Source of the DNA: an uncultured delta proteobacterium
Lineage (GTDB): Bacteria; Desulfobacterota; Binatia; Binatales; Binataceae
Direction: 5' to 3'
Assembly (NCBI GenBank): GCA_963765675.1
Contig: CAVXXK010000001.1
Span: 256,001 to 320,000 of the forward strand
Length of the DNA stretch: 64,000 nucleotides
The position numbers and the translations under genes are program-made. Positions 4,851 to 45,129 of the stretch are shown here, piece by piece (positions within the stretch are counted from its first letter, which is position 1; every line of letters begins with the position of its first letter). The notes beneath the pieces were generated by a model. The model was not told the DNA's origin. It did not search any database and saw only the letters and a program-made list of their open reading frames with translations.

Positions 4851-7211
4851 ATGTCGGTAGTGGCAATTCCGTCCGAAGGCTCACTGAGTAGTGATCAGGG
4901 CGCCAACTCGCCCGGCCTTGCCGTTGACGAGGCCGCCCGGCGTCTGGTTCAGTTCGGACCCAACTCGGTAACCGACACCTCCGTCAGTGCATTGTGGTTG
5001 GCGATAGGCAAGTTCTGGGCGCCGGTGCCGTGGATGCTCGAGGCCGCGATCCTGCTCGAACTCATGCTCGGAAAATTTGTCGAAGCAGCGATCATCGGGT
5101 TCCTTCTCCTGTTCAACGCCGCTCTCGGACTTTTCCAGGAGTCGCGCGCGCAGGCGACTCTCGAGGCGCTGAAGTCGCGTCTGGCGCTCAATGCCTCCGT
5201 GCACCGCGGAGGTGCCTGGATTGTCGTACCCGCCGCCACGCTCGTGCCGGGCGATATCGTCAAGCTCTCGCTCGGATCGGTGGTTGCCGCTGATGTTCGG
5301 CTGCTCGGCGGATCGGTCCTTCTCGATCAATCGACGCTCACCGGCGAGTCAGTCCCGATCGAAGCTGGCGCTGGAACCCAAACCTGGGCCGGAGCGCTGG
5401 TGCGCCGCGGCGAGGCGCTCGCCGAAGTTACCGCCACCGGATCGCGCACGAAGTTCGGGCGCACCGCCGAGCTCGTTCGTGTCGCGCACGTGGCCAGCTC
5501 TCAGCAAAAGGCCGTGCTGCGCGTGGTGCGCAACCTCGCGATATTCAACAGCGTGATCATCATGATGCTGGTGGCGTATGCCTACGCGATCGCGATGCCG
5601 ATTGCCGAAATCATACCGCTGGTGCTGACCGCCATTCTGGCGACTATCCCGGTCGCCCTTCCCGCCACCTTCACTCTCGCCGAGGCTCTCGGCGCACGCG
5701 CCCTGGCTCACTTGGGCGTCTTGCCGACGCGGCTCTCCGCGGTGGACGAAGCCGCGACCATGGATGTCCTGTGCTCGGACAAAACCGGCACGCTGACCCG
5801 CAACGAGCTGAAGGTTACCGCGATCCGGCCGATGCCCGGCTTCGACGAACCACAGGTGCTCGCGATGGCGGCGCTGGCCAGCGACGAAGGCGGACAGGAT
5901 CCCGTCGATGCGGCGATTCGAGCCGCGGCAGTCCTCACTCCGGTGTCCGCTCCACTCAAGGCCGTCAGTTTTATCCCGTTTGATCCTTCGACCAAGCAAT
6001 CGGAGGCGACCGCGATGGATGCGAAAGGAGTTACGTTGCGAGTCGTCAAAGGCGCATTCGCCGCCGTCGGCATCCTTGCACCGGCGTCCGCGGAGGCGGC
6101 GCAGGCGGCGCGGGAGCTCGAAGGGAAAGGTTTCCGCGTTCTGGGCGTCGCAGTAGGACCTGCGCAGGGAAAACTCTCAATATGCGGGTTGGTCGCCCTC
6201 AGCGATCCGCCGCGCGATGATTCCGCGACGCTTATCGCGGCGCTGCTCGCCTCCGGCGTGCGTACCGTAATGTTAACCGGCGACGCGCCTGCCACCGCTG
6301 CGATCGTCGCGCGTGCGGTGGGTCTTGATGGCCCCGTATGCCCTCCCGGCGCGATTTCGCCAACGGCGCGGCCCGACCAGTTCGCGGTCTTTGCGGGAGT
6401 CTTGCCCGAAGGCAAATATCAGCTCGTCAAGGCGTTTCAGGCCGGAGGGCACACCGTCGGCATGTGCGGTGACGGCGCAAACGACGCGCCTGCCCTGCGC
6501 CAAGCGCACATGGGAATAGCGGTATCCACCGCCACCGACGTCGCCAAATCAGCGGCCGGCATCGTACTGACCGAGCCTGGACTGGCCGGTATAGTCGCCG
6601 CGGTCAAGGAAGGCCGCACCACCTTTCAGCGTGTTCTGACCTATACCTTGAACTCGGTAATCAAAAAGCTGGTTCAGGTGCTGTTTCTGGCAGTCGGGCT
6701 TGTGATGACTGGACGTGCAATACTCACTCCGATGCTTATGGTCATCATCATGATCACCGGAGACTTTCTGACTATGTCGTTGACCACGGATAACGTGGTG
6801 CCCTCGCCGACGCCCAACATATGGCGAATCGGCCGACTGACTATTGCCGGCGCTGTACTGGCTATCAGCGAGCTTATATTTTGCTCCGCCGTTCTGGCGA
6901 TCGGAAAATTCCGGATGGAAATGAGTACGCAAACGCTGCAAACTCTCTCCTTCGTGGTACTGATGTTCGCCAGTGAAGCGGCCTTATATGCGATTCGCAT
7001 CCGCCACCGCCTGTGGTCGCGGCCGAGTACCTGGCTTATTCTGTCCTCGGTCGGCGATCTGCTGATAATTGGTACGCTCGCCGTCGGCGGAATCGCGATG
7101 GCCCCGCTACCCATTTACGTCGTGGCAGGCGTGCTCGCTGGTGCAGTCCTATACGGACTCGCGGCGGACGTGATGAAGCTCTGGCTGTTCGCGCGCCTCC
7201 GAATCGCCTGA
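4851..7211 (+). CDS. P-type plasma-membrane H+-ATPase (P3A-like)
   Basis: TGES, IPVALP, CSDKTGTLT, TGD, GDGANDAPAL motifs; Asp in TM6 (ITGDF); short N-terminus. Confidence 0.85.
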   Translation: MSVVAIPSEGSLSSDQGANSPGLAVDEAARRLVQFGPNSVTDTSVSALWLAIGKFWAPVPWMLEAAILLELMLGKFVEAAIIGFLLLFNAALGLFQESRAQATLEALKSRLALNASVHRGGAWIVVPAATLVPGDIVKLSLGSVVAADVRLLGGSVLLDQSTLTGESVPIEAGAGTQTWAGALVRRGEALAEVTATGSRTKFGRTAELVRVAHVASSQQKAVLRVVRNLAIFNSVIIMMLVAYAYAIAMPIAEIIPLVLTAILATIPVALPATFTLAEALGARALAHLGVLPTRLSAVDEAATMDVLCSDKTGTLTRNELKVTAIRPMPGFDEPQVLAMAALASDEGGQDPVDAAIRAAAVLTPVSAPLKAVSFIPFDPSTKQSEATAMDAKGVTLRVVKGAFAAVGILAPASAEAAQAARELEGKGFRVLGVAVGPAQGKLSICGLVALSDPPRDDSATLIAALLASGVRTVMLTGDAPATAAIVARAVGLDGPVCPPGAISPTARPDQFAVFAGVLPEGKYQLVKAFQAGGHTVGMCGDGANDAPALRQAHMGIAVSTATDVAKSAAGIVLTEPGLAGIVAAVKEGRTTFQRVLTYTLNSVIKKLVQVLFLAVGLVMTGRAILTPMLMVIIMITGDFLTMSLTTDNVVPSPTPNIWRIGRLTIAGAVLAISELIFCSAVLAIGKFRMEMSTQTLQTLSFVVLMFASEAALYAIRIRHRLWSRPSTWLILSSVGDLLIIGTLAVGGIAMAPLPIYVVAGVLAGAVLYGLAADVMKLWLFARLRIA

Positions 7212-34624: not shown

Positions 34625-37600
34625 TCACGCGCGATGCGGCCGTAGGGTGCCACGCCTCAGCGCGCGTTCCTTCATCATCGCGAAGAATACCGGCACCAGG
34701 ATCAGCACGTGAATCGTTGACGTGACCATCCCGCCAACGATCGGCGCCGCGATCGGCTTCATCACGTCGGCGCCGATTCCCGACTCCCACAGTATCGGCG
34801 CCAGGCTCAGCATCACCACCGCGACCGTCATCAGCTTCGGGCGCAGGCGATGCACCGCGCCGTCGATCGCGGCCTCTTCGATCGCGGCGTGATCGACGGT
34901 GCCCGCGGCAAGCCGACGGTCGAGCGCTTCGTCCAGATAGATCACCATCACGACTCCAGTCTCGACCGCGATTCCGAACAGATCGATATAGCCGATCGCG
35001 ACCGCGACGCTGAAGTCGTAGCCGAGGAACCATTGCAGCAAGAGTCCGCCCGTCAGCGCGTACACGCATGGAAACAACAGGACCAGCGTCTCCGCCACAG
35101 AGCCGAACAGCATGTAGAGCAGCACGAAAATCGCCGCGAACACTATCGGCAGAATGAGCGTCAGGCTTCGGCGCGCACGCAACTCGAACTCGTACTCGCC
35201 CGACCATTTGAACGAGTAACCGGGCGGCATCTTGAGGTGCTGATCGAGCAGGCGCTGGGCGTGATCGACGTAGCCGCCGTAGTCGCTGGTCGAGAGATCG
35301 ACGTACACGTAGCCGGTCAGCTCGCCGTCCTCGTCGCGGATCATCGTGGGTCCGGGAGCGACCGCGATCGACGCGACCTCGCTCAGTGGAACCTGCGCGC
35401 CAGACGGGGTCGCGAGCAGCACCGCACCGAGCGCCTCAGGATTCGAGCGATAGTCACTCAGGTAGCGCACGCTGATCGGAAACCGCTCGCGTCCGTTGAT
35501 AACGGTCGAGATATTGTCGCCACCGATCGCCGACCTGACCGCCGTCTGGATGTCGTCGACCGTCAATCCGTAACGCGCCGCAACCGCGCGGTTCGGCGTG
35601 ACGTTGATATAGAAGCCCTGCGACACGCGCTCGGCGAATACTCCGCGCGTGCCCGGCATACTGCCCAGAATCTCCTCCATCGCGAGGCCGATTCGCTGAA
35701 TCTCTTCTAGGTTTGGACCCTGGATTTTCAGCCCGACCGGAGTTTTGATTCCGGTAAGCTCCATGTCGAGACGATTCCCGACCGGCATCGTCCAGGTGTT
35801 CGCGAGCCCCGGGAAATGAAGCTTCGCGTCCATCGCTGCGACCAGGCGATCGTAAGTCATACCGGCAGGCCACTGGTTGCGCGGCTTCAGCATCACCGTC
35901 GTATCGAACATGTCCATCGGCGCGTTGTCGGTCGCGCTGTCGGAGCGACCCACGGTGCCGAACACGCTTTCGACTTCCGGGAACGCGCGGATAATCCGGT
36001 CCTGCTGCTGCAACAGCGCCGTCGCCGACGTGATCGAGAGGCCGGGCAGAGCAGTAGGCATATAGAGCATCGAGCCCTCGAACAACGGCGGCATGAACTG
36101 GCTTCCGATCTTGAGCACCAGCGGCAAGGTCAGCGCGAGGAAGGCCAGGTTGGCGACGATCGTTATCGCGCGATGCCGCAGGCACCACTTGATCACAGGC
36201 CGGTAGAGCGCCTGAAAAAATCGCGAGAGCGGATTTTCATTCTCGGGACGAATCCGCCCGCGAATCAGCCACAGCATCAGGATCGGAACGATCGTCACCG
36301 CCAGGATCGACGACGACGAAATCGCCAGCGTCTTGGTCCAGGCCAGCGGCCGGAACATCCGCCCCTCCTGCGCCTCAAGCATGAACACGGGCAGAAACGA
36401 GACCACGATTATCAGGAGCGAGTAGAACAGTGGGCGGCCGACCTGCTTCGCCGCGCCGAGCAGCACGCGATCGCGCTCGCCCGCTTGGGGAGCCGTCATG
36501 CTGTCGCGGCCGTGGTTTGCAATCCAGTCGCCCAGATGGCGATGCCCGTTTTCCACCATCACGATCGACGCATCGACCAGCACCCCGATCGCGAGTGCGA
36601 ATCCGCCGAGCGACATGATGTTCGAGCTCACGTGCAGGAAGTACATCGGGATGAACGACGCGAGCAGCGCGAGCGGGATCGAGGCGATCGGGATCAGCGC
36701 CGAGCGGAAGTGCCACAAGAACACGATGATCACCAGGCTCACGATGATCGCTTCCTCGACCAGGGCGCGGCGCAGGGTCTGGATCGAATCGCTGATCAGG
36801 CCCGCGCGATCGTAGCCCGCGACGATCTCGACGCCCGGCGGGAGCGTCTTCTGAACCTCTGTGATGCGCTGCTTGATGCCGTCGATAACGCGGAGCGCGT
36901 TTTCGCCGTCGCGCATCACGACGATCCCGCCGACCACTTCGCCCTGGCCGTCATAATCCGCCGCGCCTTCGCGCAGGTCGGGACCGAAGCTCACGACGCC
37001 AAGGTCGCGGATCAGGACCGGAGTGCCGCCATGATCGGCGACCGGAATATTTTCGAGATCGGCGAGCGACTTGATATAGCCGAGCCCGCGAATCTGGTAG
37101 TCGGCGCCCGACATCTCGAGCACGCGGCCGCCGACCTCGTTGTTGCTCGCGCGGATTTTGTCGATCACGGTCTGGAGCGGCACCTTTAGCGCCAGCATCC
37201 GGTTCGGATCGAGTTTGACCTGGTACTGGCGCACGAATCCGCCGATCGTGGCGACCTCGGCGACGCCGGGCACGGTTTCGAGCGCGTAGCGGATCTTCCA
37301 GTCTTGCAGCGCACGCAAATCCGCCAGGCTCTGGCTGTGCCCGCGATCGACCAGCACGTATTCGTAAACCCATCCGGCGCCGGTCGCGTCGGGGCCAAGC
37401 GTCGGCGAGACCCCGGCTGGGAGGCGCCCGGCGAGTTGCTGCATATATTCCAGCACGCGCGAGCGCGCCCAGTAGAGATCGGTGCCGTCCTGGAACACGA
37501 CGTACACGTACGAATCGTTGGCCATTGTCTGCGCGCGAACCGCCTTGACCTTCGGCGCCGCCAGCATTGCGGTAACGATCGGATAGGTCACCTGGTCCTC

Positions 37601-37783
37601 GATCAACTGCGGCGGCTGTCCCATCCATTGCGTGTGGATGATCACCTGCACGTCGGAGATATCGGGCAGCGCGTCGAGCGGAGCATGCTCGATCGACCAT
37701 CCGCCCCCGAGCACGATCACCAGGACGGCGAGACCGACCAGAAAGCGGTTGCGATTGCACGAATCGATTATATGTTCGATCAT
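34625..37783 (-). CDS. cusA: Heavy-metal RND permease, CusA type
   Basis: DALPDISDVQVI, GPDATG.GWVYEY, MPPL.EG..LYMP, AP..MFDT, RLRPKLMT. Confidence 0.93.
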   Translation of the reverse strand: MIEHIIDSCNRNRFLVGLAVLVIVLGGGWSIEHAPLDALPDISDVQVIIHTQWMGQPPQLIEDQVTYPIVTAMLAAPKVKAVRAQTMANDSYVYVVFQDGTDLYWARSRVLEYMQQLAGRLPAGVSPTLGPDATGAGWVYEYVLVDRGHSQSLADLRALQDWKIRYALETVPGVAEVATIGGFVRQYQVKLDPNRMLALKVPLQTVIDKIRASNNEVGGRVLEMSGADYQIRGLGYIKSLADLENIPVADHGGTPVLIRDLGVVSFGPDLREGAADYDGQGEVVGGIVVMRDGENALRVIDGIKQRITEVQKTLPPGVEIVAGYDRAGLISDSIQTLRRALVEEAIIVSLVIIVFLWHFRSALIPIASIPLALLASFIPMYFLHVSSNIMSLGGFALAIGVLVDASIVMVENGHRHLGDWIANHGRDSMTAPQAGERDRVLLGAAKQVGRPLFYSLLIIVVSFLPVFMLEAQEGRMFRPLAWTKTLAISSSSILAVTIVPILMLWLIRGRIRPENENPLSRFFQALYRPVIKWCLRHRAITIVANLAFLALTLPLVLKIGSQFMPPLFEGSMLYMPTALPGLSITSATALLQQQDRIIRAFPEVESVFGTVGRSDSATDNAPMDMFDTTVMLKPRNQWPAGMTYDRLVAAMDAKLHFPGLANTWTMPVGNRLDMELTGIKTPVGLKIQGPNLEEIQRIGLAMEEILGSMPGTRGVFAERVSQGFYINVTPNRAVAARYGLTVDDIQTAVRSAIGGDNISTVINGRERFPISVRYLSDYRSNPEALGAVLLATPSGAQVPLSEVASIAVAPGPTMIRDEDGELTGYVYVDLSTSDYGGYVDHAQRLLDQHLKMPPGYSFKWSGEYEFELRARRSLTLILPIVFAAIFVLLYMLFGSVAETLVLLFPCVYALTGGLLLQWFLGYDFSVAVAIGYIDLFGIAVETGVVMVIYLDEALDRRLAAGTVDHAAIEEAAIDGAVHRLRPKLMTVAVVMLSLAPILWESGIGADVMKPIAAPIVGGMVTSTIHVLILVPVFFAMMKERALRRGTLRPHRA

Positions 37784-37798: not shown

Positions 37799-39280
37799 TT
37801 ACATCGCCATCGGTCCGCTGACCGTGATGCTCATCCGTCTGGTCGCGATCGTGCGGCCGGCTTTTTCCGCGGACACCGTGACGGTAAAGGTCCCTCCGCT
37901 GGCGAGCGTTATCTCTGCGCCGTATTTGCCGCTGCCCTGATCGGCAAGAGCGGACTCGGCGCGGATCGCCGCCATCCCCATCGAGGGCATTGCCGGCATG
38001 AAGAAGACCACCTGCACCTTCGCGCCGGTGATCGGAGCGCCGCTCGGATTCGAGAGCGTTACCCGCACCGCGTTCTTACCTTTCGCTGGCGGGGACGGAT
38101 CGGTGGTGATAGCGAGCATCGCTGGGGGCGTGGCGCTTTGACCAGCGTTTGCGACCGCCTGTTGAGTCGAACCAGGCGGAGGCGGAGTGTAGCCGCCAAT
38201 CGCGGCCTGGAGCTGGCTTTCGGAATCGATCAGGAAATTCGCCGAGCTCACGACGCGATCGCGCGCGCGCAGACCTTTGCGCACGACAAAGTTGTCGCCG
38301 ACGCGCGCGCGCAGCTCGACCTCGACCGGAGTCAGATAGCCGTCGCCCTGATCGACGAACACGATATTGTGCGTCCCGGTCTGCAGCACTCCGGCGGCGG
38401 GAATCACCAACGCGCGTCCTAGCCTCGGCGTGAGCGCGACCTGCACAAACATCCCAAGCTTCAGCGCGGCATCGGGGTTATTGAGCACGGTGCGCACCCG
38501 CGCGGTGCGCGTGACCGGATCGATCGAGGGCCAGATGGAATCGACCTTGCCGCTGAAGATTCTGCCCGGATACGAATCGACGGTGATCGCAGCCGGGTCA
38601 CCGATTTTGATCTCGCCCAGACGATCTTGAAAGACCGCGGCGTAGACCCAAATCGTGTCGAGATTTGCGATCGTGTAAAGACGCGTCGAAGGATCGGCGT
38701 ACATATTCGGCAGCGCGGCGCGATCGGTGATATAGCCGGTCGCAGGCGAATCGATTTCGATTTCGCTATGGACAGTGCGCTCGCGTTCGAGGCGGCGAAT
38801 CTCGCGTTCGGGAACGCCGAACAGGCGCAGCCGATCGAGCGACGCCGCGACCATCGTGTTGGCTCCTCCCGCTACGCCCTCGACGGTGCTGTCCTTCACG
38901 CCGGCTCGCTCGCCAAGTGCGATCAGATATTCGTTCTCGGCGTTTACGAGGTCGGGACTGTAGATCGTGAAGAGCGCCTGGCCGCGACGCACGAGCTGCC
39001 AGTTCTGATTGGCGAAAACGCTGCGGATCCATCCCGGAAACCGCGTCTGGACATAGCTTTCGCGCTGCTCGTCGGCCTCGACGGTGCCGGTTGCATCGAT
39101 CCGGTCGGTAAGTGCGCGCTCCTCCACGGTCGCGAATTTGAGACCAATCATCTGGCGTCGCTCGGGCGGCACTTCGATCGGGACCAGGTGCGGGGCTCCC
39201 GCGCCTTGCGCGCGCGGGTGGCGTGGCGGCGTGACGAGCGCGATCCACAGAATCGCGAAGGCAAATATTGTGCGCTTCAT
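37799..39280 (-). CDS. cusB: RND periplasmic adaptor (CusB-like) with C-terminal YtkA/FixH-like Met-rich domain
   Basis: IYSPDL, LKLGMF, FLIDSES; C-terminal FFMPAMPSMGM. Confidence 0.88.
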   Translation of the reverse strand: MKRTIFAFAILWIALVTPPRHPRAQGAGAPHLVPIEVPPERRQMIGLKFATVEERALTDRIDATGTVEADEQRESYVQTRFPGWIRSVFANQNWQLVRRGQALFTIYSPDLVNAENEYLIALGERAGVKDSTVEGVAGGANTMVAASLDRLRLFGVPEREIRRLERERTVHSEIEIDSPATGYITDRAALPNMYADPSTRLYTIANLDTIWVYAAVFQDRLGEIKIGDPAAITVDSYPGRIFSGKVDSIWPSIDPVTRTARVRTVLNNPDAALKLGMFVQVALTPRLGRALVIPAAGVLQTGTHNIVFVDQGDGYLTPVEVELRARVGDNFVVRKGLRARDRVVSSANFLIDSESQLQAAIGGYTPPPPGSTQQAVANAGQSATPPAMLAITTDPSPPAKGKNAVRVTLSNPSGAPITGAKVQVVFFMPAMPSMGMAAIRAESALADQGSGKYGAEITLASGGTFTVTVSAEKAGRTIATRRMSITVSGPMAM

Positions 39281-40572
39281 GAATTTGCTCCGATGATCCG
39301 CTCGACATGCGCGACCGCAATCTCGTGGTCCGCGATCGCACGCAGGTAGCCCTCGCGCAATTCGAGTACCGCGGTCACCGCCGAGAGCATCGTCTGGAAA
39401 TCGACTTTGCCGGTGCGATACGCGGCGCGCGCCGAGTTCATCGTCGCCTCGGATTGCGGAATCAGCCCGTCGCGGTACATCGCGATAATCCGGGTCTGGG
39501 TGCGAATCGAAACGAGGCTCGCCTGCAGGTCGGATAGCGTCGCCAAGCGCGCCGCGCGCAGCGCACTTTGGGCAGAGTGCTTTTCAAGCGCGGCCTGCTC
39601 GACCGCGGGAGTCTGCTTGCGCCAGAAGTAAAGTGGAATCTTCGCGCCGATCGAGAACATGTAGTAGTCGGCGAAGCCCGGCCCGGTCTTCTCGTACGTG
39701 TAGCCGACGTCAAAGTCGGGCCAGTAATCGTGACGCGCCAGCTCGAGCGCATTTTCGCTGCGCGCGACCGCGGTTTGCGCCATCTTCAGCTCCGGAGAAT
39801 CGGCGTCCGCGGCGGCCACGATTTCCGTTTCGCCGAGCTTGAGCGTGGTCGGTGTGATGTCGCCGATCTCGATATTGCGCGAATCCTGCTCGCGCCCGAG
39901 CATCGCCTTGAGATTCGCCTCGGCCACCTGGGTATCGTCGTGATTCAGCTCGAGCTGCTTGAGTATCGCGGTCGCCGCGAGCTGCGCCTTGAGCACGTCC
40001 TGCTGCTGCGCGCTGCCGGTGCGATATTGTGCCGCGGTAGCGCCGGCGATCGACGCGAGATCGACGCGCGTCTGTTCGAGCAGGCTGCGCGAGCGCGTCA
40101 GAAGGAAGAGATTGAACGCGTCGTCGCGGACCTTCTCGGCGACGTTGCGCTCTGCGGCGACGACGCTCTCGCCGGCGGTCTCGGCGTCTTTCTTCGCCTG
40201 CTCCGCGCGGAGCCTCAACTTTCCGGGTCCGGGAATTTCCTGCGAGAAGCCGAATCCGGTGTAGTAGAAATTGCTCGATTCATAGCCGGAAAACGGCTGT
40301 GGACTGCCGACCGTAAAATGCTGGAGCGAGATTTCCGGGTCGGGCAGGGTCGCGGCCTGGACCGGCACGCGCGTGGTTGCCTGCCAATGGCTTTGCGCGG
40401 CGGCGATCTCCGGGCTCGCGCGCATCGCCTCGCTCACCAGCGCGTCGACGGTAACTGGTGCGTCGCTTTGATCCGCCGATCCGCGCCCTGCGGAAAGTCC
40501 GATCCCGATCACGACTGCAAGCGCAAGCTGTGCGGAAACCCTTTTTCGCCGCGCCTTATGTTTCGGCTCCAT
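39277..40572 (-). CDS. TolC-family outer membrane factor
   Basis: Signal peptide, LPDP, QEIP.PGKL, YRTG repeats; first gene of the RND operon. Confidence 0.9.
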   Translation of the reverse strand: MEPKHKARRKRVSAQLALAVVIGIGLSAGRGSADQSDAPVTVDALVSEAMRASPEIAAAQSHWQATTRVPVQAATLPDPEISLQHFTVGSPQPFSGYESSNFYYTGFGFSQEIPGPGKLRLRAEQAKKDAETAGESVVAAERNVAEKVRDDAFNLFLLTRSRSLLEQTRVDLASIAGATAAQYRTGSAQQQDVLKAQLAATAILKQLELNHDDTQVAEANLKAMLGREQDSRNIEIGDITPTTLKLGETEIVAAADADSPELKMAQTAVARSENALELARHDYWPDFDVGYTYEKTGPGFADYYMFSIGAKIPLYFWRKQTPAVEQAALEKHSAQSALRAARLATLSDLQASLVSIRTQTRIIAMYRDGLIPQSEATMNSARAAYRTGKVDFQTMLSAVTAVLELREGYLRAIADHEIAVAHVERIIGANS

Positions 40573-40718
40573 CTCGATTCACCCATCGCGTAAGTCTGAT
40601 TCGCCACGCACGATCGTGCGCGAGCGAGATTCCTCAACTGCGATTCGCGGCTCGGTGCGCGCAGGGGCGCATCGGCGCGAGTGATCGCGCTCAAAGAGTC
40701 ATTAACAATTTGGCGAAA

Positions 40719-41074
40719 TCAGATCTGGAACGAGCAGAGCCGCACCGGCGAAGGCGATTCCACGGGCGGAGATTCATCCGCGCGAGGATCGTCACCGCGA
40801 TGTCCCTTAGGGGAGTCAGGACGGCGAACCAGGACGCGGGCACGTGGCGATGCGCACTCGGCTCTTGAACCGACGACTTGGCAGACGCGACGGTAGCATC
40901 GTGCGGCGCGACGCGGCAGCACCGCGTGGCGTCGCGGCTATTCGGCGCAGGCGCCGGACAGGAAGTCGAGCAGCAGGTGCGCGCCGCGGAGGCGTTCAGC
41001 CCTGCCGTCGCGATCCCGCCGCTAGAGGCGAGCATCGCAAACGCAAGCAGGAACATGGCTGCACGCCGGAGCAT
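40719..41074 (-). CDS. Cys-rich exported leader protein (DUF2946/CutF/CruR-like), apparently frameshifted near 40804-40813
   Basis: Signal peptide plus CCSTSC and RCCR in one frame; SPPVESPSPVRLCSFQI* in the adjacent frame. Confidence 0.65.
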
Positions 41075-41206
41075 CGCACCTAGGCTAAGGCGCGCGGCGA
41101 TCTTGCGCAATACCGTCAATCCATTCGGTTTCTGCGCGCGCTTCTATTTTTTTCCTATCTGGGTTATGTCTAGCCTGATCAATCACCATACCCGCGAGGA
41201 TGAGAG

Positions 41207-42397
41207 ATGGACTTTTCGCTTAGCCCGAAGACCGAAGATTTGCGCAAACGCGTTTCCGCCTTCATGGACCAGTACGTCTATCCGGCCGAGAAGGTCGTGA
41301 TTACGCAGGAGCGCGCCGATTCCCACGAAGAACATCCGGTAATGAAAGACATCAGGAAGAAGGCCAAGGCTGAAAAGCTCTGGAACCTTTTCCTGCCCGA
41401 CGAGAAGTGGGGCGCCGGCCTCAAGAACTACGAATACGCCCCGCTGTGCGAGGTCATGGGCCGCAGCCCGCTCGGCGCGCGTGCGTTTAACTGCATGGCG
41501 CCCGACACCGGCAACATGGAAATCCTGACCGAGTTCGGCACCGACGAGCAGAAGCAGAAGTGGCTTAAGCCTCTGCTCGAAGGCGAGATGCGCACCTGCT
41601 TTTCGATGACCGAGCCCGACACCGCGGGCTCCGATCCGACTCTGCTCAAGACCCGCGCCGTGCGCGACGGCGACTACTACGTGATCAACGGCCACAAGTG
41701 GTTCACCTCGAACGCGATCGGCTCGGCCTTCGCGATCGCGATGGTGGTGACCGACCCCGAGGCGGAATCGCATCGCCGTGCGAGCCAGATTATCGTCCCG
41801 ACCGATACTCCCGGATTCAATATGGTTCGTCCGGTGCCGGTGATGGGCCATACCGGGGGCGGCGGACATTGCGAGATCATCTATAAGGATTGCCGCGTGC
41901 CGATCACCAACGTGCTCGGGCGCGAGGGCGACGGCTTTGCGATTTCGCAGGCCCGTCTCGGACCGGGCCGAATCCATCATTGTATGCGCACGATCGGAAC
42001 CGCCGAGCGCGCGATCGAGCTGATGTGCAAGCGCGCCAATGTACGCTTTACCCACGGCAGCCTGCTCGCCGACAAGGCGAATATCCAGGAATGGATCGCC
42101 GACTCGCGAATCGAGGTCGACTCCGCGCGACTGATGGTGATGAACGCGGCGTGGCAGATGGACACTCTCGGCAAGAAAGAAGCGCGCCAGCAGATCTCGA
42201 TGATCAAAGTGCAGTGCGCGAACATGGTGATGCGCGTGCTCGACCGCGCGATCCAGCTCTACGGCGCGGCCGGGGTGAGCGACGATTATCCTCTGGCGCG
42301 GATGTGGCGCGAGGGCCGCGCGCTAAGGATCGCCGACGGTCCCGACGAAGTGCATCGCCAGACGATCGCGCGCCGCGAGCTGCGCAAATGGAAGTAG
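41207..42397 (+). CDS. Acyl-CoA dehydrogenase (ACAD10/11, LvaC-like)
   Basis: NCMAPDTGNME, FSMTEP, RLGPGRIHHCMR, ADGPDEVH. Confidence 0.94.
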   Translation: MDFSLSPKTEDLRKRVSAFMDQYVYPAEKVVITQERADSHEEHPVMKDIRKKAKAEKLWNLFLPDEKWGAGLKNYEYAPLCEVMGRSPLGARAFNCMAPDTGNMEILTEFGTDEQKQKWLKPLLEGEMRTCFSMTEPDTAGSDPTLLKTRAVRDGDYYVINGHKWFTSNAIGSAFAIAMVVTDPEAESHRRASQIIVPTDTPGFNMVRPVPVMGHTGGGGHCEIIYKDCRVPITNVLGREGDGFAISQARLGPGRIHHCMRTIGTAERAIELMCKRANVRFTHGSLLADKANIQEWIADSRIEVDSARLMVMNAAWQMDTLGKKEARQQISMIKVQCANMVMRVLDRAIQLYGAAGVSDDYPLARMWREGRALRIADGPDEVHRQTIARRELRKWK

Positions 42398-42499: not shown

Positions 42500-43608
42500 A
42501 TGGCGGAAGCGATAGAAATCCTGCCCGAGTACGGCGAAGTCCGCGACGAGGAACAACTCGACTGGGCCAAGCTCCAAGCCTTCCTGAACGGACAAGCTGC
42601 CCGGCGCGGACCGCGAGCTCACCGTCAAACAGTTTCGCGGCGGACATTCCAATCTCACCTACCTGCTGCGCTTCGGTGACGGCGCGCAGACGCAAGAATG
42701 GGTCATGAGGCGGCCGCCGTTTGGTCCGCTGCCCGTTGGCGGACACGACATGGCGCGCGAGTACAAGGTGCTCTCGCGGCTGTGGCAGGCGTTCGAACCG
42801 GCGCCGCGCGCGATGCTGTTCTGCGACGACGTGTCGATTATCGGCGCGCCGTTTTTCGTGATGGAGCGGCGCAACGGAATCGTGATCAAAAATCGCCAGC
42901 CGCTCCCCGACGAGCTGCCGCAGGATCCTGACGTCGCTGCGCAAGCTCTCGGCGGGATTTATCGATACCGCCGCCGACCTGCACGGCGTCGATTACCGCA
43001 AGATCGGGCTCGAGACGCTCGGCAAGCCGGAAGGGTTCCTGGTCCGCCAGACCAACGGATGGATGAAAAGGTGGGAGGCCGCAAAGACCCGCGAAGTGCC
43101 GCTGATGGAAAAGCTCGGCGCGTGGTTCGTCGAGAATCTGCCGCCCGCGCAACCGCCCGCGATTATCCATAACGATTTCTACCTCCACAACGTGATGATC
43201 GACTCGCACGACCCGGGAAAAATCGTCGGTGTCTTCGACTGGGAGATGTCCACGCTCGGCGATCCGCTGGTCGATGTGGGGATCGCGCTCAACTACTGGC
43301 GCGACAACACCGACCCGCCCGAGCTGCTGGACACAAGCCAGGGCGAAGTTCACACGCTGCGCAAAGGCTTCATGACCCGCGATGAGCTGATCGACCGCTA
43401 CGCCAAACGGACGGGGCGCGATCTGAGCCGCATCGCCTACTACTGGGCATGGGCGCATTGGAAGAACGCCACGGTGGTCGAGCAGATCTACGTCCGCTAC
43501 GTGCGCGGCCAGACCACCGACCCCCGCTTCGCCGCGATGGGCACCCACGCCCCGGCTCTTGCAATCGCATCGGCCAGGGTCGCCTCGCGAATGGGATTTC
43601 GAGCCTGA
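42500..43608 (+). CDS. APH-like phosphotransferase (ACAD10/11 kinase, LvaA-like) with two frameshifts
   Basis: GGHSNLTY, RRPP, HDMARE, HNDFYLHN, DWEMSTLGDP found across three frames; shifts at about 42590 and 42930. Confidence 0.85.
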
Positions 43609-44621: not shown

Positions 44622-45129
44622 ATGTCCAGAAAGACATTGGTTGACGCGATCATAAACGGCGAGCCGACCGAGTTCCTGTGCGAGCCGCGCCAGAGCCTGC
44701 TCGAATGCCTGCGCGACGTCCTCGAGCTGACCGGCAGCAAGGAAGGATGCCTCACCGGCGATTGCGGCGCCTGCACCGTCATGATCGATGGTCGCGCGGT
44801 ATGCTCATGCCTGGTGCTCGGCCCCGAGGCCGCAAGGCAAGCGGATCACGACGGTCGAGGGTCTTGCCGACGCGACCAGGCTCCACGAGCTGCAGCAGCA
44901 ATTCCTCGAGCACGCGAGTCTGCAATGCGGAATCTGCACGCCGGGATTCCTGATGTCGGCCAAGGCTCTGCTCGAGCGCAATCCAAATCCGACCGAGCCC
45001 GAGATTCGATACGCGCTGGCGGGGAATCTCTGCCGATGCACCGGGTACGACAAGATCGTGCGCGCGGTGACCGACGCGGCCAAAACCCTGCGCGAAGGCG
45101 GACATGACCGCGCCGCGGCGCGGAGCTAG
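44622..45129 (+). CDS. Xanthine dehydrogenase family 2Fe-2S (small) subunit, frameshift at ~44830
   Basis: GCLTGDCGACTV then QCGICTPG and CRCTGY in the next frame; removing one C gives EAQGKRITTVEG. Confidence 0.88.

Follow-up and report, generated by a model that had tools for sequence, protein, structure and literature searches.

How is a copper efflux pump controlled when no regulator gene is seen next to it? In the usual view, induction of metal efflux pumps is the work of two-component or MerR-type regulators. The question is raised by a minus-strand operon in the window, the 64,000-nucleotide stretch analysed here (contig CAVXXK010000001.1, positions 256,001 to 320,000) from an uncultured delta proteobacterium of the Binataceae. 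In this operon a small open reading frame (ORF, ATG at 41074), called the leader below, is followed by three genes that Pfam and NCBIfam profile matches assign to a Cus-type pump. No two-component, MerR/CueR or CsoR gene is found among the ORFs scanned within about 10 kb on either side, which agrees with the initial annotation of this sequence, where the lack of an adjacent CusRS, CueR or CsoR gene had been noted. Comparison among relatives shows a family of such leaders with common motifs, constant spacing and a shared operon context, in which the region of the leader stop is predicted to pair with the ribosome-binding site (RBS) of the pump. On balance we think it probable that this is the leader of a CusCBA-type Cu/Ag efflux operon and that it acts on the pump by translation, through a stop-to-RBS helix, in the manner of CutF, CruR and SilD.

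The leader and its protein family

In the window the leader is divided between two frames. Its first part (frame A, 40778..41074, minus strand) begins at ATG 41074 with M-LRRAAMFLL... and comprises a signal peptide, the motifs CCSTSC and RCCR and a linker running to ...TILAR; the conserved portion ends at the CGG (Arg) codon 40778-40780. The second part (frame B, 40719..40778, minus strand, -1 relative to frame A) reads DESPPVESPSPVRLCSFQI and ends at TGA 40719-40721. The hydrophobic N-terminus, both cysteine motifs and the ending in the neighbouring frame are thus as the initial annotation described them. A word-indexed search of 5.8 billion clusters returns two relatives only, P0001 (121 aa) and P0002 (118 aa), both hypothetical proteins of Candidatus Binataceae. 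Both are colinear with frame A through ...ILAR and thereafter with frame B, the two parts of the window sequence being 77% and 89% identical to P0002, respectively, so that the earlier proposal of a single added base fusing the frames into a protein of about 118 aa is borne out. The fused product has 118 aa, whereas the frame-A product as written has 127 aa from the ATG; the relatives used for comparison have a single protein of 115-131 aa. Its continuation beyond the break, MNLRPWNRLRRCGSARSRSDFAKLLMTL (40691..40777, minus strand, stop at 40691-40693), has 29% identity, which amounts to no real alignment, and is conserved in no relative. An in-frame TTG at 41119 is a possible alternative start upstream; the homologues start at the MLRR/MFRR position.

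Where is the base missing? It had been placed in the C/G runs at 40804-40813, wrongly, because frame A is conserved through 40781. DNA alignment with the four closest relatives (L066, L058, L047 and L024) locates the indel at 40778..40780 (minus strand), where the window has GG and the relatives GGG: they read GCGCGGGA(T/C)GAA and the window reads GCGCGGATGAA (aligned GCGC-GGATGAA), one G short of the run. The break is most likely a 1-base deletion in this G run, that is, an assembly indel. Such an error is probable because two further genes within 4.4 kb are split between frames, making three breaks with the leader: an APH-family phosphotransferase gene (42705-43608, plus strand), in which profile positions 36-136 fall in 42705-43172 and 137-228 in the overlapping 43063-43608, and a CoxS-like [2Fe-2S] gene (44622-45129, plus strand), with Fer2 in 44622-45107 and Fer2_2 in 44788-45129. 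The outer-membrane factor (OMF) genes that follow the leader in L003, L006 and L012, all records of metagenome-assembled genomes, are truncated or broken into two frames, and this suggests that assemblies of this kind often carry indel errors.

Two other explanations of the break have to be considered. A real mutation would make the leader a pseudogene, or the source of the 127-aa frame-A product, and pump control would be lost or changed. The window sequence as given does have GG rather than GGG, and frame A stays open for 28 further codons with high third-position GC. We nonetheless regard a mutation as rather unlikely, given that the leader is in one frame in 45 of 45 family ORFs from species-representative genomes, that the frame-B codons downstream of the break retain, at the protein level, the identity to P0002 given above, and that the split APH and CoxS-like genes point to indel errors. 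Programmed -1 ribosomal frameshifting at CGG-G could join the frames as well, since reading the last G of CGG (40778) twice would give the exact homologue junction ...AR-DESPP.... It is very unlikely indeed, because the site has no slippery X XXY YYZ heptamer and the extra G puts the protein of all relatives in one frame.

With the two homologues as query, HMMER run exhaustively over 1.84 billion representatives gives 9 matches at E<=1e-3. One is a spurious 784-aa Calx-beta protein; the other 8 are small proteins (115-160 aa), each with a hydrophobic N-terminus, CCxxxC, 8-12 residues, CC, a variable middle and the exact end LC[S/C][F/L/R]QI. The family motifs were back-translated into a degenerate DNA pattern, which matches the window once against 0 matches expected and was then run over species-representative genomes. 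There it has 66 matches, 45 of them open in-frame ORFs with signal-peptide-like N-termini, in genomes labelled Binataceae (15), old 'Deltaproteobacteria' (25), 'Proteobacteria' (3), Acidobacteriota (1) and Thermodesulfobacteriota (1). The other 21 were considered as broken family members and rejected: they contain stops or frame breaks, show none of the features that the pattern left free, and are taken as chance matches. A profile of 50 members reaches at least 110 clusters at E<=0.01, all unnamed or 'hypothetical' and 0 with a Pfam domain.

Family members are 107-131 aa long and are built of a signal peptide, CCxxxC, about 11 aa, CC, an unconserved linker, usually PP, and LCS[R/F/L]QI directly before the stop. 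The N-terminus is basic and then hydrophobic, with small residues ahead of the Cys cluster. Both CC pairs are invariant, and the third Cys, which makes the CxxxC, is present in at least 90% of the 50 members; P0002 is without it, having CCSTAG in place of CCSTSC. Of the conservation that had been expected among relatives, the paired cysteines hold and the third is not invariant, and of the expected PP..LC..I end the LCS[R/F/L]QI portion is family-wide while the PP run is not.

The spacing of these motifs is nearly constant. From the second CC to the C-terminus there are 63-67 residues in the 45 loci, where the pattern allowed 61-70, and 63-66 residues in 9 proteins from the HMMER and word searches, outside pattern selection. 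CC and PP are separated by 46-53 residues (mode 47) in 40 of 41 scored members and by 42 in the remaining one, with no conservation of the intervening sequence. A PP run lies in the last 25 residues of 41 of 50 members, with 14 residues after it in 28 of those. Its two prolines, not forced by the pattern, stand at -16 and -15 in 34 and 33 of 45 loci, respectively, and in the window's clade at -15/-14. Position -4, also free, is Ser in 44 of 45 loci, encoded by TCG, TCC, TCT, TCA or AGT, and position -3 is R, F or L. Across the 45 loci the tail Cys is TGT in 27 and TGC in 18, the Gln is CAG in 30 and CAA in 15, and Arg and Ile vary synonymously too. Because features outside the pattern are conserved while synonymous codons vary, the peptide sequence itself must be under selection. 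The Leu at -6 behaves otherwise, being CTC in 42 of 45 loci (19 of 19 clusters) though the pattern allowed any YTN and the adjoining codons vary synonymously; this looks like a constraint at the nucleotide or codon level.

Pfam and NCBIfam have no family for the frame-A ORF, the frame-B piece or the family members. Against DUF2946 (PF11162, gathering score 23.7 bits), the family of CruR, CutF, CopL, CzcI and SilD, a single one of the 50 members gives a match, with 9 bits and E = 3.1. The nearest clusters in the ESM Atlas are unnamed (0.97), and one in which 23% of the members have DUF2946 scores 0.93, which we treat as a lead only. An AlphaFold2 (AF2) model from the 50-sequence alignment has a predicted local distance difference test score (pLDDT) of 59.9 and a predicted template modelling score of 0.21, its confident parts being the signal helix (residues 2-17, pLDDT 77-92) and a short C-terminal helix.

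The gene after the leader matches Pfam OEP in 40 of the 44 loci with downstream sequence (38 before ORFs were re-called in the misses); in the remaining 4, it is ACR_tran, a fragment of a resistance-nodulation-division (RND) pump, in 1, and nothing is recognised in 3. The spacer between leader and OMF gene is mostly 135-185 nt across loci and 146 nt in the window. Contig CAVWMQ010000003.1 carries two members (L008 and L013) on opposite strands, with about 2.6 kb between them; one of them heads an OMF gene, and after the other, as after L055, come ORFs that match nothing in Pfam, so that the leader is not exclusive to RND operons. The leader stop is TGA in 37 of 38 loci (18 of 19 clusters), against 19 of 39 genes in the window; as a clue this was dropped, because the OMF genes of the same loci likewise all end in TGA (35 of 35).

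Pairing of the leader stop region with the pump start

The RNA around the leader stop is predicted to pair with the Shine-Dalgarno (SD) sequence and start of the pump genes, a helix that would close the whole intergenic region. In the window its 5' arm is 40721..40745 (minus strand), which covers the final 8 leader codons and extends to the first stop-codon base, corresponding to columns 10-34 of an RNAalifold prediction on 8 relatives. The 3' arm, from RNAalifold and the tests across clades, is 40560..40584 (minus strand) and takes in an SD-like GGGUGA (40579-40584), a spacer and the beginning of the tolC-like gene, with its ATG (40570-40572) and the codons next to it (GAGCCG). In the 8 relatives 95.2% of 168 cells pair, compared with 33-45% when the partner is slid. 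Within the spacer (40585..40690, minus strand) RNAalifold predicts hairpins at 40675-40690, 40656-40671 and 40601-40627 and a helix of 40639-40644 with 40585-40590, and over the 8 relatives compensatory changes are seen in 5 of 48 predicted pairs.

The decisive evidence for the predicted stop-to-RBS helix comes from the pairing in other clades. Their post-stop sequences are quite different, and each matches its own SD region: AACCUUCC pairs with GGAAGGUU, UUCUCGUCCCG with CGGGACGAGAA, UUUCCCUC with GAGGGAAA, and AUCCUCGA with UCGAGGAU. When duplex energies between the stop-proximal 24 nt and the SD/start region are computed for 19 clusters (39 loci), the cognate mean is -18.1 kcal/mol and the non-cognate mean -12.9 kcal/mol, and the cognate value is equalled in 0 of 20,000 permutations; the non-cognate scores are themselves inflated because part of the pairing is common to all clades. 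For 14 of 19 clusters, the best partner of the same 24 nt anywhere from the stop to +80 of the OMF gene has its centre at the SD/start (chance 12%, binomial 7e-10), as against 2 of 19 for a control segment 36-60 nt upstream. RNAalifold on the 16 loci of the largest clade, whose sequences differ from those of the window's clade, gives the same outer helix with a few compensatory pairs. No Rfam family is found in 40300-41300 at E<=1. Two features of the pairing sequences may be recorded here: in the window the last two codons and stop (CAG AUC UGA, 40719-40727, minus strand) hold the palindrome CAGAUCUG, and the OMF starts in several other clades are preceded by (UC)AGAUG.

The initial annotation had likewise proposed a helix closing the intergenic region, and a helix of that kind is indeed predicted across clades, but its partner is the SD and ATG and not 40595-40606. 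The helix then put forward joins the stop codon and the 10 nt beyond it (40711..40723, minus strand) to a segment about 25 nt before the ATG (40595..40606, minus strand), a possible alternative partner in the window's clade only. Its complementarity is there, as 12 pairs with one bulge; an ungapped inverted-repeat search of the plus strand listed none, a bulged helix being invisible to that method. By our estimate a 7-nt seed such as it contains is near chance level in about 260 nt. That it is a functional switch element closing the spacer seems decidedly improbable, although two observations speak for it: in the window's own cluster (L024) this site is the lowest-energy partner of the stop-proximal segment (-18.3 kcal/mol, compared with -16.4 for the SD site), and the helix is kept in the 5 closest sequences. 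Over 8 relatives, however, 80.2% of cells are paired with 0 compensatory changes, the 3' arm drifting against a fixed 5' arm, from which three of the 8 (L004, L057 and L027) have lost 5 columns. The helix also lies outside the RNAalifold consensus, which puts its 3' arm inside a local hairpin, and in other clades the partner sits on the SD/start. In the window's clade it may be an alternative to the closing stem or an inward extension of it.

How the leader may act on the pump

How could a leader of this kind control the pump? An intact leader would give a 118-aa exported peptide with a Sec-type signal, a Cys cluster, a linker of fixed length, PP, and LCS[R/F/L]QI abutting the stop. The helix between stop region and SD/start, which lie about 146 nt apart, would hide the pump RBS. 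When a ribosome reaches the final leader codons or the stop, it sits over the 5' arm, and from this layout alone it follows that the helix over the RBS must open. While that ribosome is translating there, and above all if it pauses, initiation by a second ribosome on the pump genes would become possible. As in the models for CutF, CruR and SilD, the C-terminal peptide may be an arrest or slow-termination sequence that prolongs the stay of the ribosome. The dwell time could then be set by binding of Cu(I) or Ag(I) to the Cys cluster, which by the same analogy would just be leaving the Sec channel about 65 residues back. About 65 residues is roughly the length that spans the ribosome tunnel and the Sec channel. 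That metal turns the pump on, and not off, is assumed from the role of the pump. With the window sequence as written, translation would pass over the same RNA in frame A and end 28 nt further on, so that the conserved tail is not made.

A stronger form of this proposal is that PP followed by LCS[R/F/L]QI and the stop is a new arrest or slow-termination peptide, either independent of the RAPP type or diverged from it past recognition, and that CCxxxC...CC reads periplasmic Cu(I)/Ag(I) through the tunnel and SecYEG and so times the opening of a helix of about 150 nt over the cusC RBS. We put this forward tentatively, as a possibility that falls short of even chances.

Is the peptide a signal at all, or simply a protein? 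The small protein might be a periplasmic Cu(I)-binding store or chaperone that feeds the pump, the helix being ordinary translational coupling with neither arrest nor sensing. CusD of Cupriavidus metallidurans is read as a periplasmic copper-binding lipoprotein in PMC10304878, and at least 5 conserved cysteines, one of them near the C-terminus, could form a metal site; such a protein would account equally well for the coupling helix. On the other hand, the linker of about 47 residues is fixed in length and unconserved in sequence, AF2 predicts no confident fold, conservation reaches the final residue before the stop, and cusD alone is expressed without added metal (PMC10304878), which fits a leader. 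A mature periplasmic protein is thus an explanation we find unlikely.

The leader could also act on transcription, as CruR does, with ribosome release letting Rho terminate in the long spacer and with RNA structure of secondary importance. The spacers (146 nt in the window) do resemble the 162-nt cruR-bfrG spacer (PMC9426467), and most CutF-like spacers are below 100 nt, unlike those here (PMC9973294). The clade-specific conserved pairing, however, falls on the SD/start, which points to control of initiation, and a scan of 40400-41300 finds no intrinsic terminator. We hold a transcriptional mechanism to be improbable.

Control of pump translation through the stop-to-RBS helix remains the reading we prefer, and a number of points weigh against it. 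Within the window's clade the closing helix shows covariation in 1 of 21 pairs, which is weak because both arms are nearly invariant within each clade; its shuffle control is not exceeded (95 to 101 of 500), and the single-sequence minimum free energy (MFE) fold of the window spacer stands out little from shuffled sequences (z = -1.9). The best duplex partner lies away from the SD/start in 5 of 19 clusters, the window's own (L024) included. The L, C, Q, I and stop of the tail were fixed by the search pattern, and hence their occurrence in 45 of 45 loci is no independent evidence. The PP run is missing from the last 25 residues of 9 of 50 members, the signal peptides were assigned by eye and from the AF2 helix, and the Cys conserved in the tail might just as well serve a mature protein as a metal ligand. 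The scan of 40400-41300 finds neither a promoter nor a terminator, and gives no sign of operon transcription. To our knowledge LCS[R/F/L]QI matches no arrest motif. Metal binding and ribosome arrest, finally, are steps that we infer purely by analogy.

Known leaders and the surrounding genes

Which known systems does the family resemble? The initial annotation had likened the leader to CruR and CutF. This is supported by the upstream ORF, the export signal, the Cys motif, the Pro-containing end, the spacing of 47-50 aa and the CusCBA context, but membership of DUF2946, the family of both, is not detectable. The definition of CutF-like ORFs in PMC9973294 includes a length below 150 aa and an N-terminal Sec signal, and in these two respects the family, at the lengths given above, agrees with it. 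It also has a Cys motif of the CxxxC or CXXC type, a fixed Cys-to-Pro spacing (45 in CruR, mode 47 in SilD), a same-strand metal-homeostasis gene within 1000 nt downstream (OEP, in the proportion of loci given above) and, as a prediction, an RNA structure that hides the downstream SD within reach of the ribosome at the leader end. In PMC9973294 the gene found most often downstream of CutF-like ORFs is an OEP gene of an RND system. The filter used there asks for PP among the final 15 residues, and most members of the present family, with PP at -16/-15, would fall just outside it.

CutF of Rhodobacter capsulatus, a DUF2946 protein and the leader of cutFOG, shares with the family a Sec signal, CxxxC (here within CCxxxC) and Pro near the C-terminus. 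In that system the SD of the next gene is masked by a stem until a ribosome reaching the leader end melts it (PMC9973294; bioRxiv 10.1101/2025.02.05.636593). CutF differs in that its target is a multicopper oxidase and not an RND pump, that arrest occurs at PPP near the end and that its spacer is short; it has been tested experimentally, whereas the present family is known from sequence alone. CruR of Bordetella pertussis, also a DUF2946 protein, is likewise encoded by an upstream ORF and keeps its Cys motif a set 45 residues from a C-terminal arrest motif; it works over a spacer of 162 nt and needs no dedicated regulator (PMC9426467). It differs in having CXXC and a RAPP three residues from the end, in a dispensable signal peptide, and in acting by Rho-dependent termination to repress an uptake transporter when copper is present. 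The SecM, VemP and MifM leaders are alike in that an exported nascent chain arrests at the leader end and so melts a stem over the next RBS. They sense secretion activity, not metal, and their arrest sequences are unrelated. Arrest leaders of this type are named in PMC9973294.

Also among the closest known systems is SilD/CusD of Cupriavidus metallidurans (silDCBA on pMOL30; cusDCBAF), which PMC9973294 labels among the CutF-like proteins. Here too a small gene immediately precedes the OMF gene in a Cus/Sil RND operon, and its product has an N-terminal hydrophobic export segment and a Cys motif. The Cys-to-Pro spacing of the SilD family is 46-50 (mode 47, as in the window family) in 28 of 29 scored. 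SilD of pMOL30 ends ...PRPPPRPLAILHCCFRI, and its family (80 matches, 33 aligned) ends (RA)PPPP-LAILHCCFR[I/T/N]; the tails are alike in a Cys at -5 and an Ile at -1 before the stop, a resemblance by eye only. The motifs differ, LCxxHC with a PPPP tail in the SilD family against CCxxxC...CC with PP-x8-LCS[R/F/L]QI here, and so do the spacers, 72 nt in silD-silC against 135-185 nt. DUF2946 is touched by 15 of 33 SilD-family members (best 4e-6), compared with the single marginal match in the window family. In hhalign the profile of the window family against that of the SilD family gives a probability of 4.1%, with the signal peptide alone aligned, and against SilD itself 1.1%. Because homology is undetectable by Pfam and hhalign, we class the family as CutF/SilD-like in its working and not as a DUF2946 member. 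In the pMOL30 silD-silC spacer (L067 9930-10060, minus strand) the silD stop region is predicted to pair with silC GGAGG/AUG (MFE -41.4 kcal/mol, z = -2.98), a fold of which the literature passages covered make no mention.

What, then, is new? The leader belongs to an unannotated family, mostly of Binataceae; the general idea has already been published for CutF-like ORFs (PMC9973294), and one of the 29 sequence similarity network clusters of that study might already include the family. The strings LCSRQI, LCSFQI, LCSLQI and HCCFRI have no match in the literature searched, and among 3,184 papers matching Binatota/Binatia with copper or CusA, the ten ranked highest include none on a leader ORF. 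If our reading is true, a lineage of uncultured soil bacteria, the Binataceae and relatives, runs a Cus-type pump by means of a translated leader, and the CutF/CruR principle extends to a family that databases do not recognise, with a new candidate arrest peptide and with long spacers closed by a stop-to-RBS helix. Should the tail indeed be a new arrest peptide, the Binatia would have a regulator-free copper switch for an RND pump at the level of translation. An annotation rule also follows, since such ORFs are now called 'hypothetical protein' or missed and are easily broken in indel-prone assemblies, as in the window. The stop-proximal anti-SD sequence and the fixed ruler of 47 residues are directly testable features.

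The pump itself has the three components of a CusCBA-type heavy-metal efflux RND system, a CusA-like pump, a CusB-like adaptor and an OEP, within one operon. The first gene (39277..40572, minus strand) encodes an outer-membrane efflux protein of the TolC/CusC type, 431 aa (Pfam OEP 1.8e-40); a tblastn search of plasmids with the OMF protein found distant TolC genes only. The second (37799..39280, minus strand) encodes a CusB-like membrane-fusion protein of 493 aa (Pfam HlyD_D23 1.1e-69, YtkA 1.1e-12), which scores 2.1e-41 against the NCBIfam CusB subfamily, under that model's cut-off. Its YtkA-like (Ig-like) domain, at residues 394-469 by Pfam, is an extra C-terminal module past the CusB barrel-sandwich part. 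The third (34625..37783, minus strand) is a CusA-type heavy-metal RND pump of 1052 aa, with 1091.9 bits against TIGR00914 (cut-off 701). Compared with solved structures in the PDB it scores 1031 bits with E. coli CusA and 520 bits with ZneA, and because the CusA score is far above that of ZneA the pump is taken as the Cu/Ag type. The neighbouring genes are metabolic and encode a glyoxalase-fold protein, a DEAD-box helicase, an acyl-CoA dehydrogenase, the APH-family kinase and CoxSML-like proteins. A P-type ATPase encoded 27 kb away (4851-7211, plus strand) carries a Cation_ATPase_N domain and does not have the appearance of a CopA-type copper pump.

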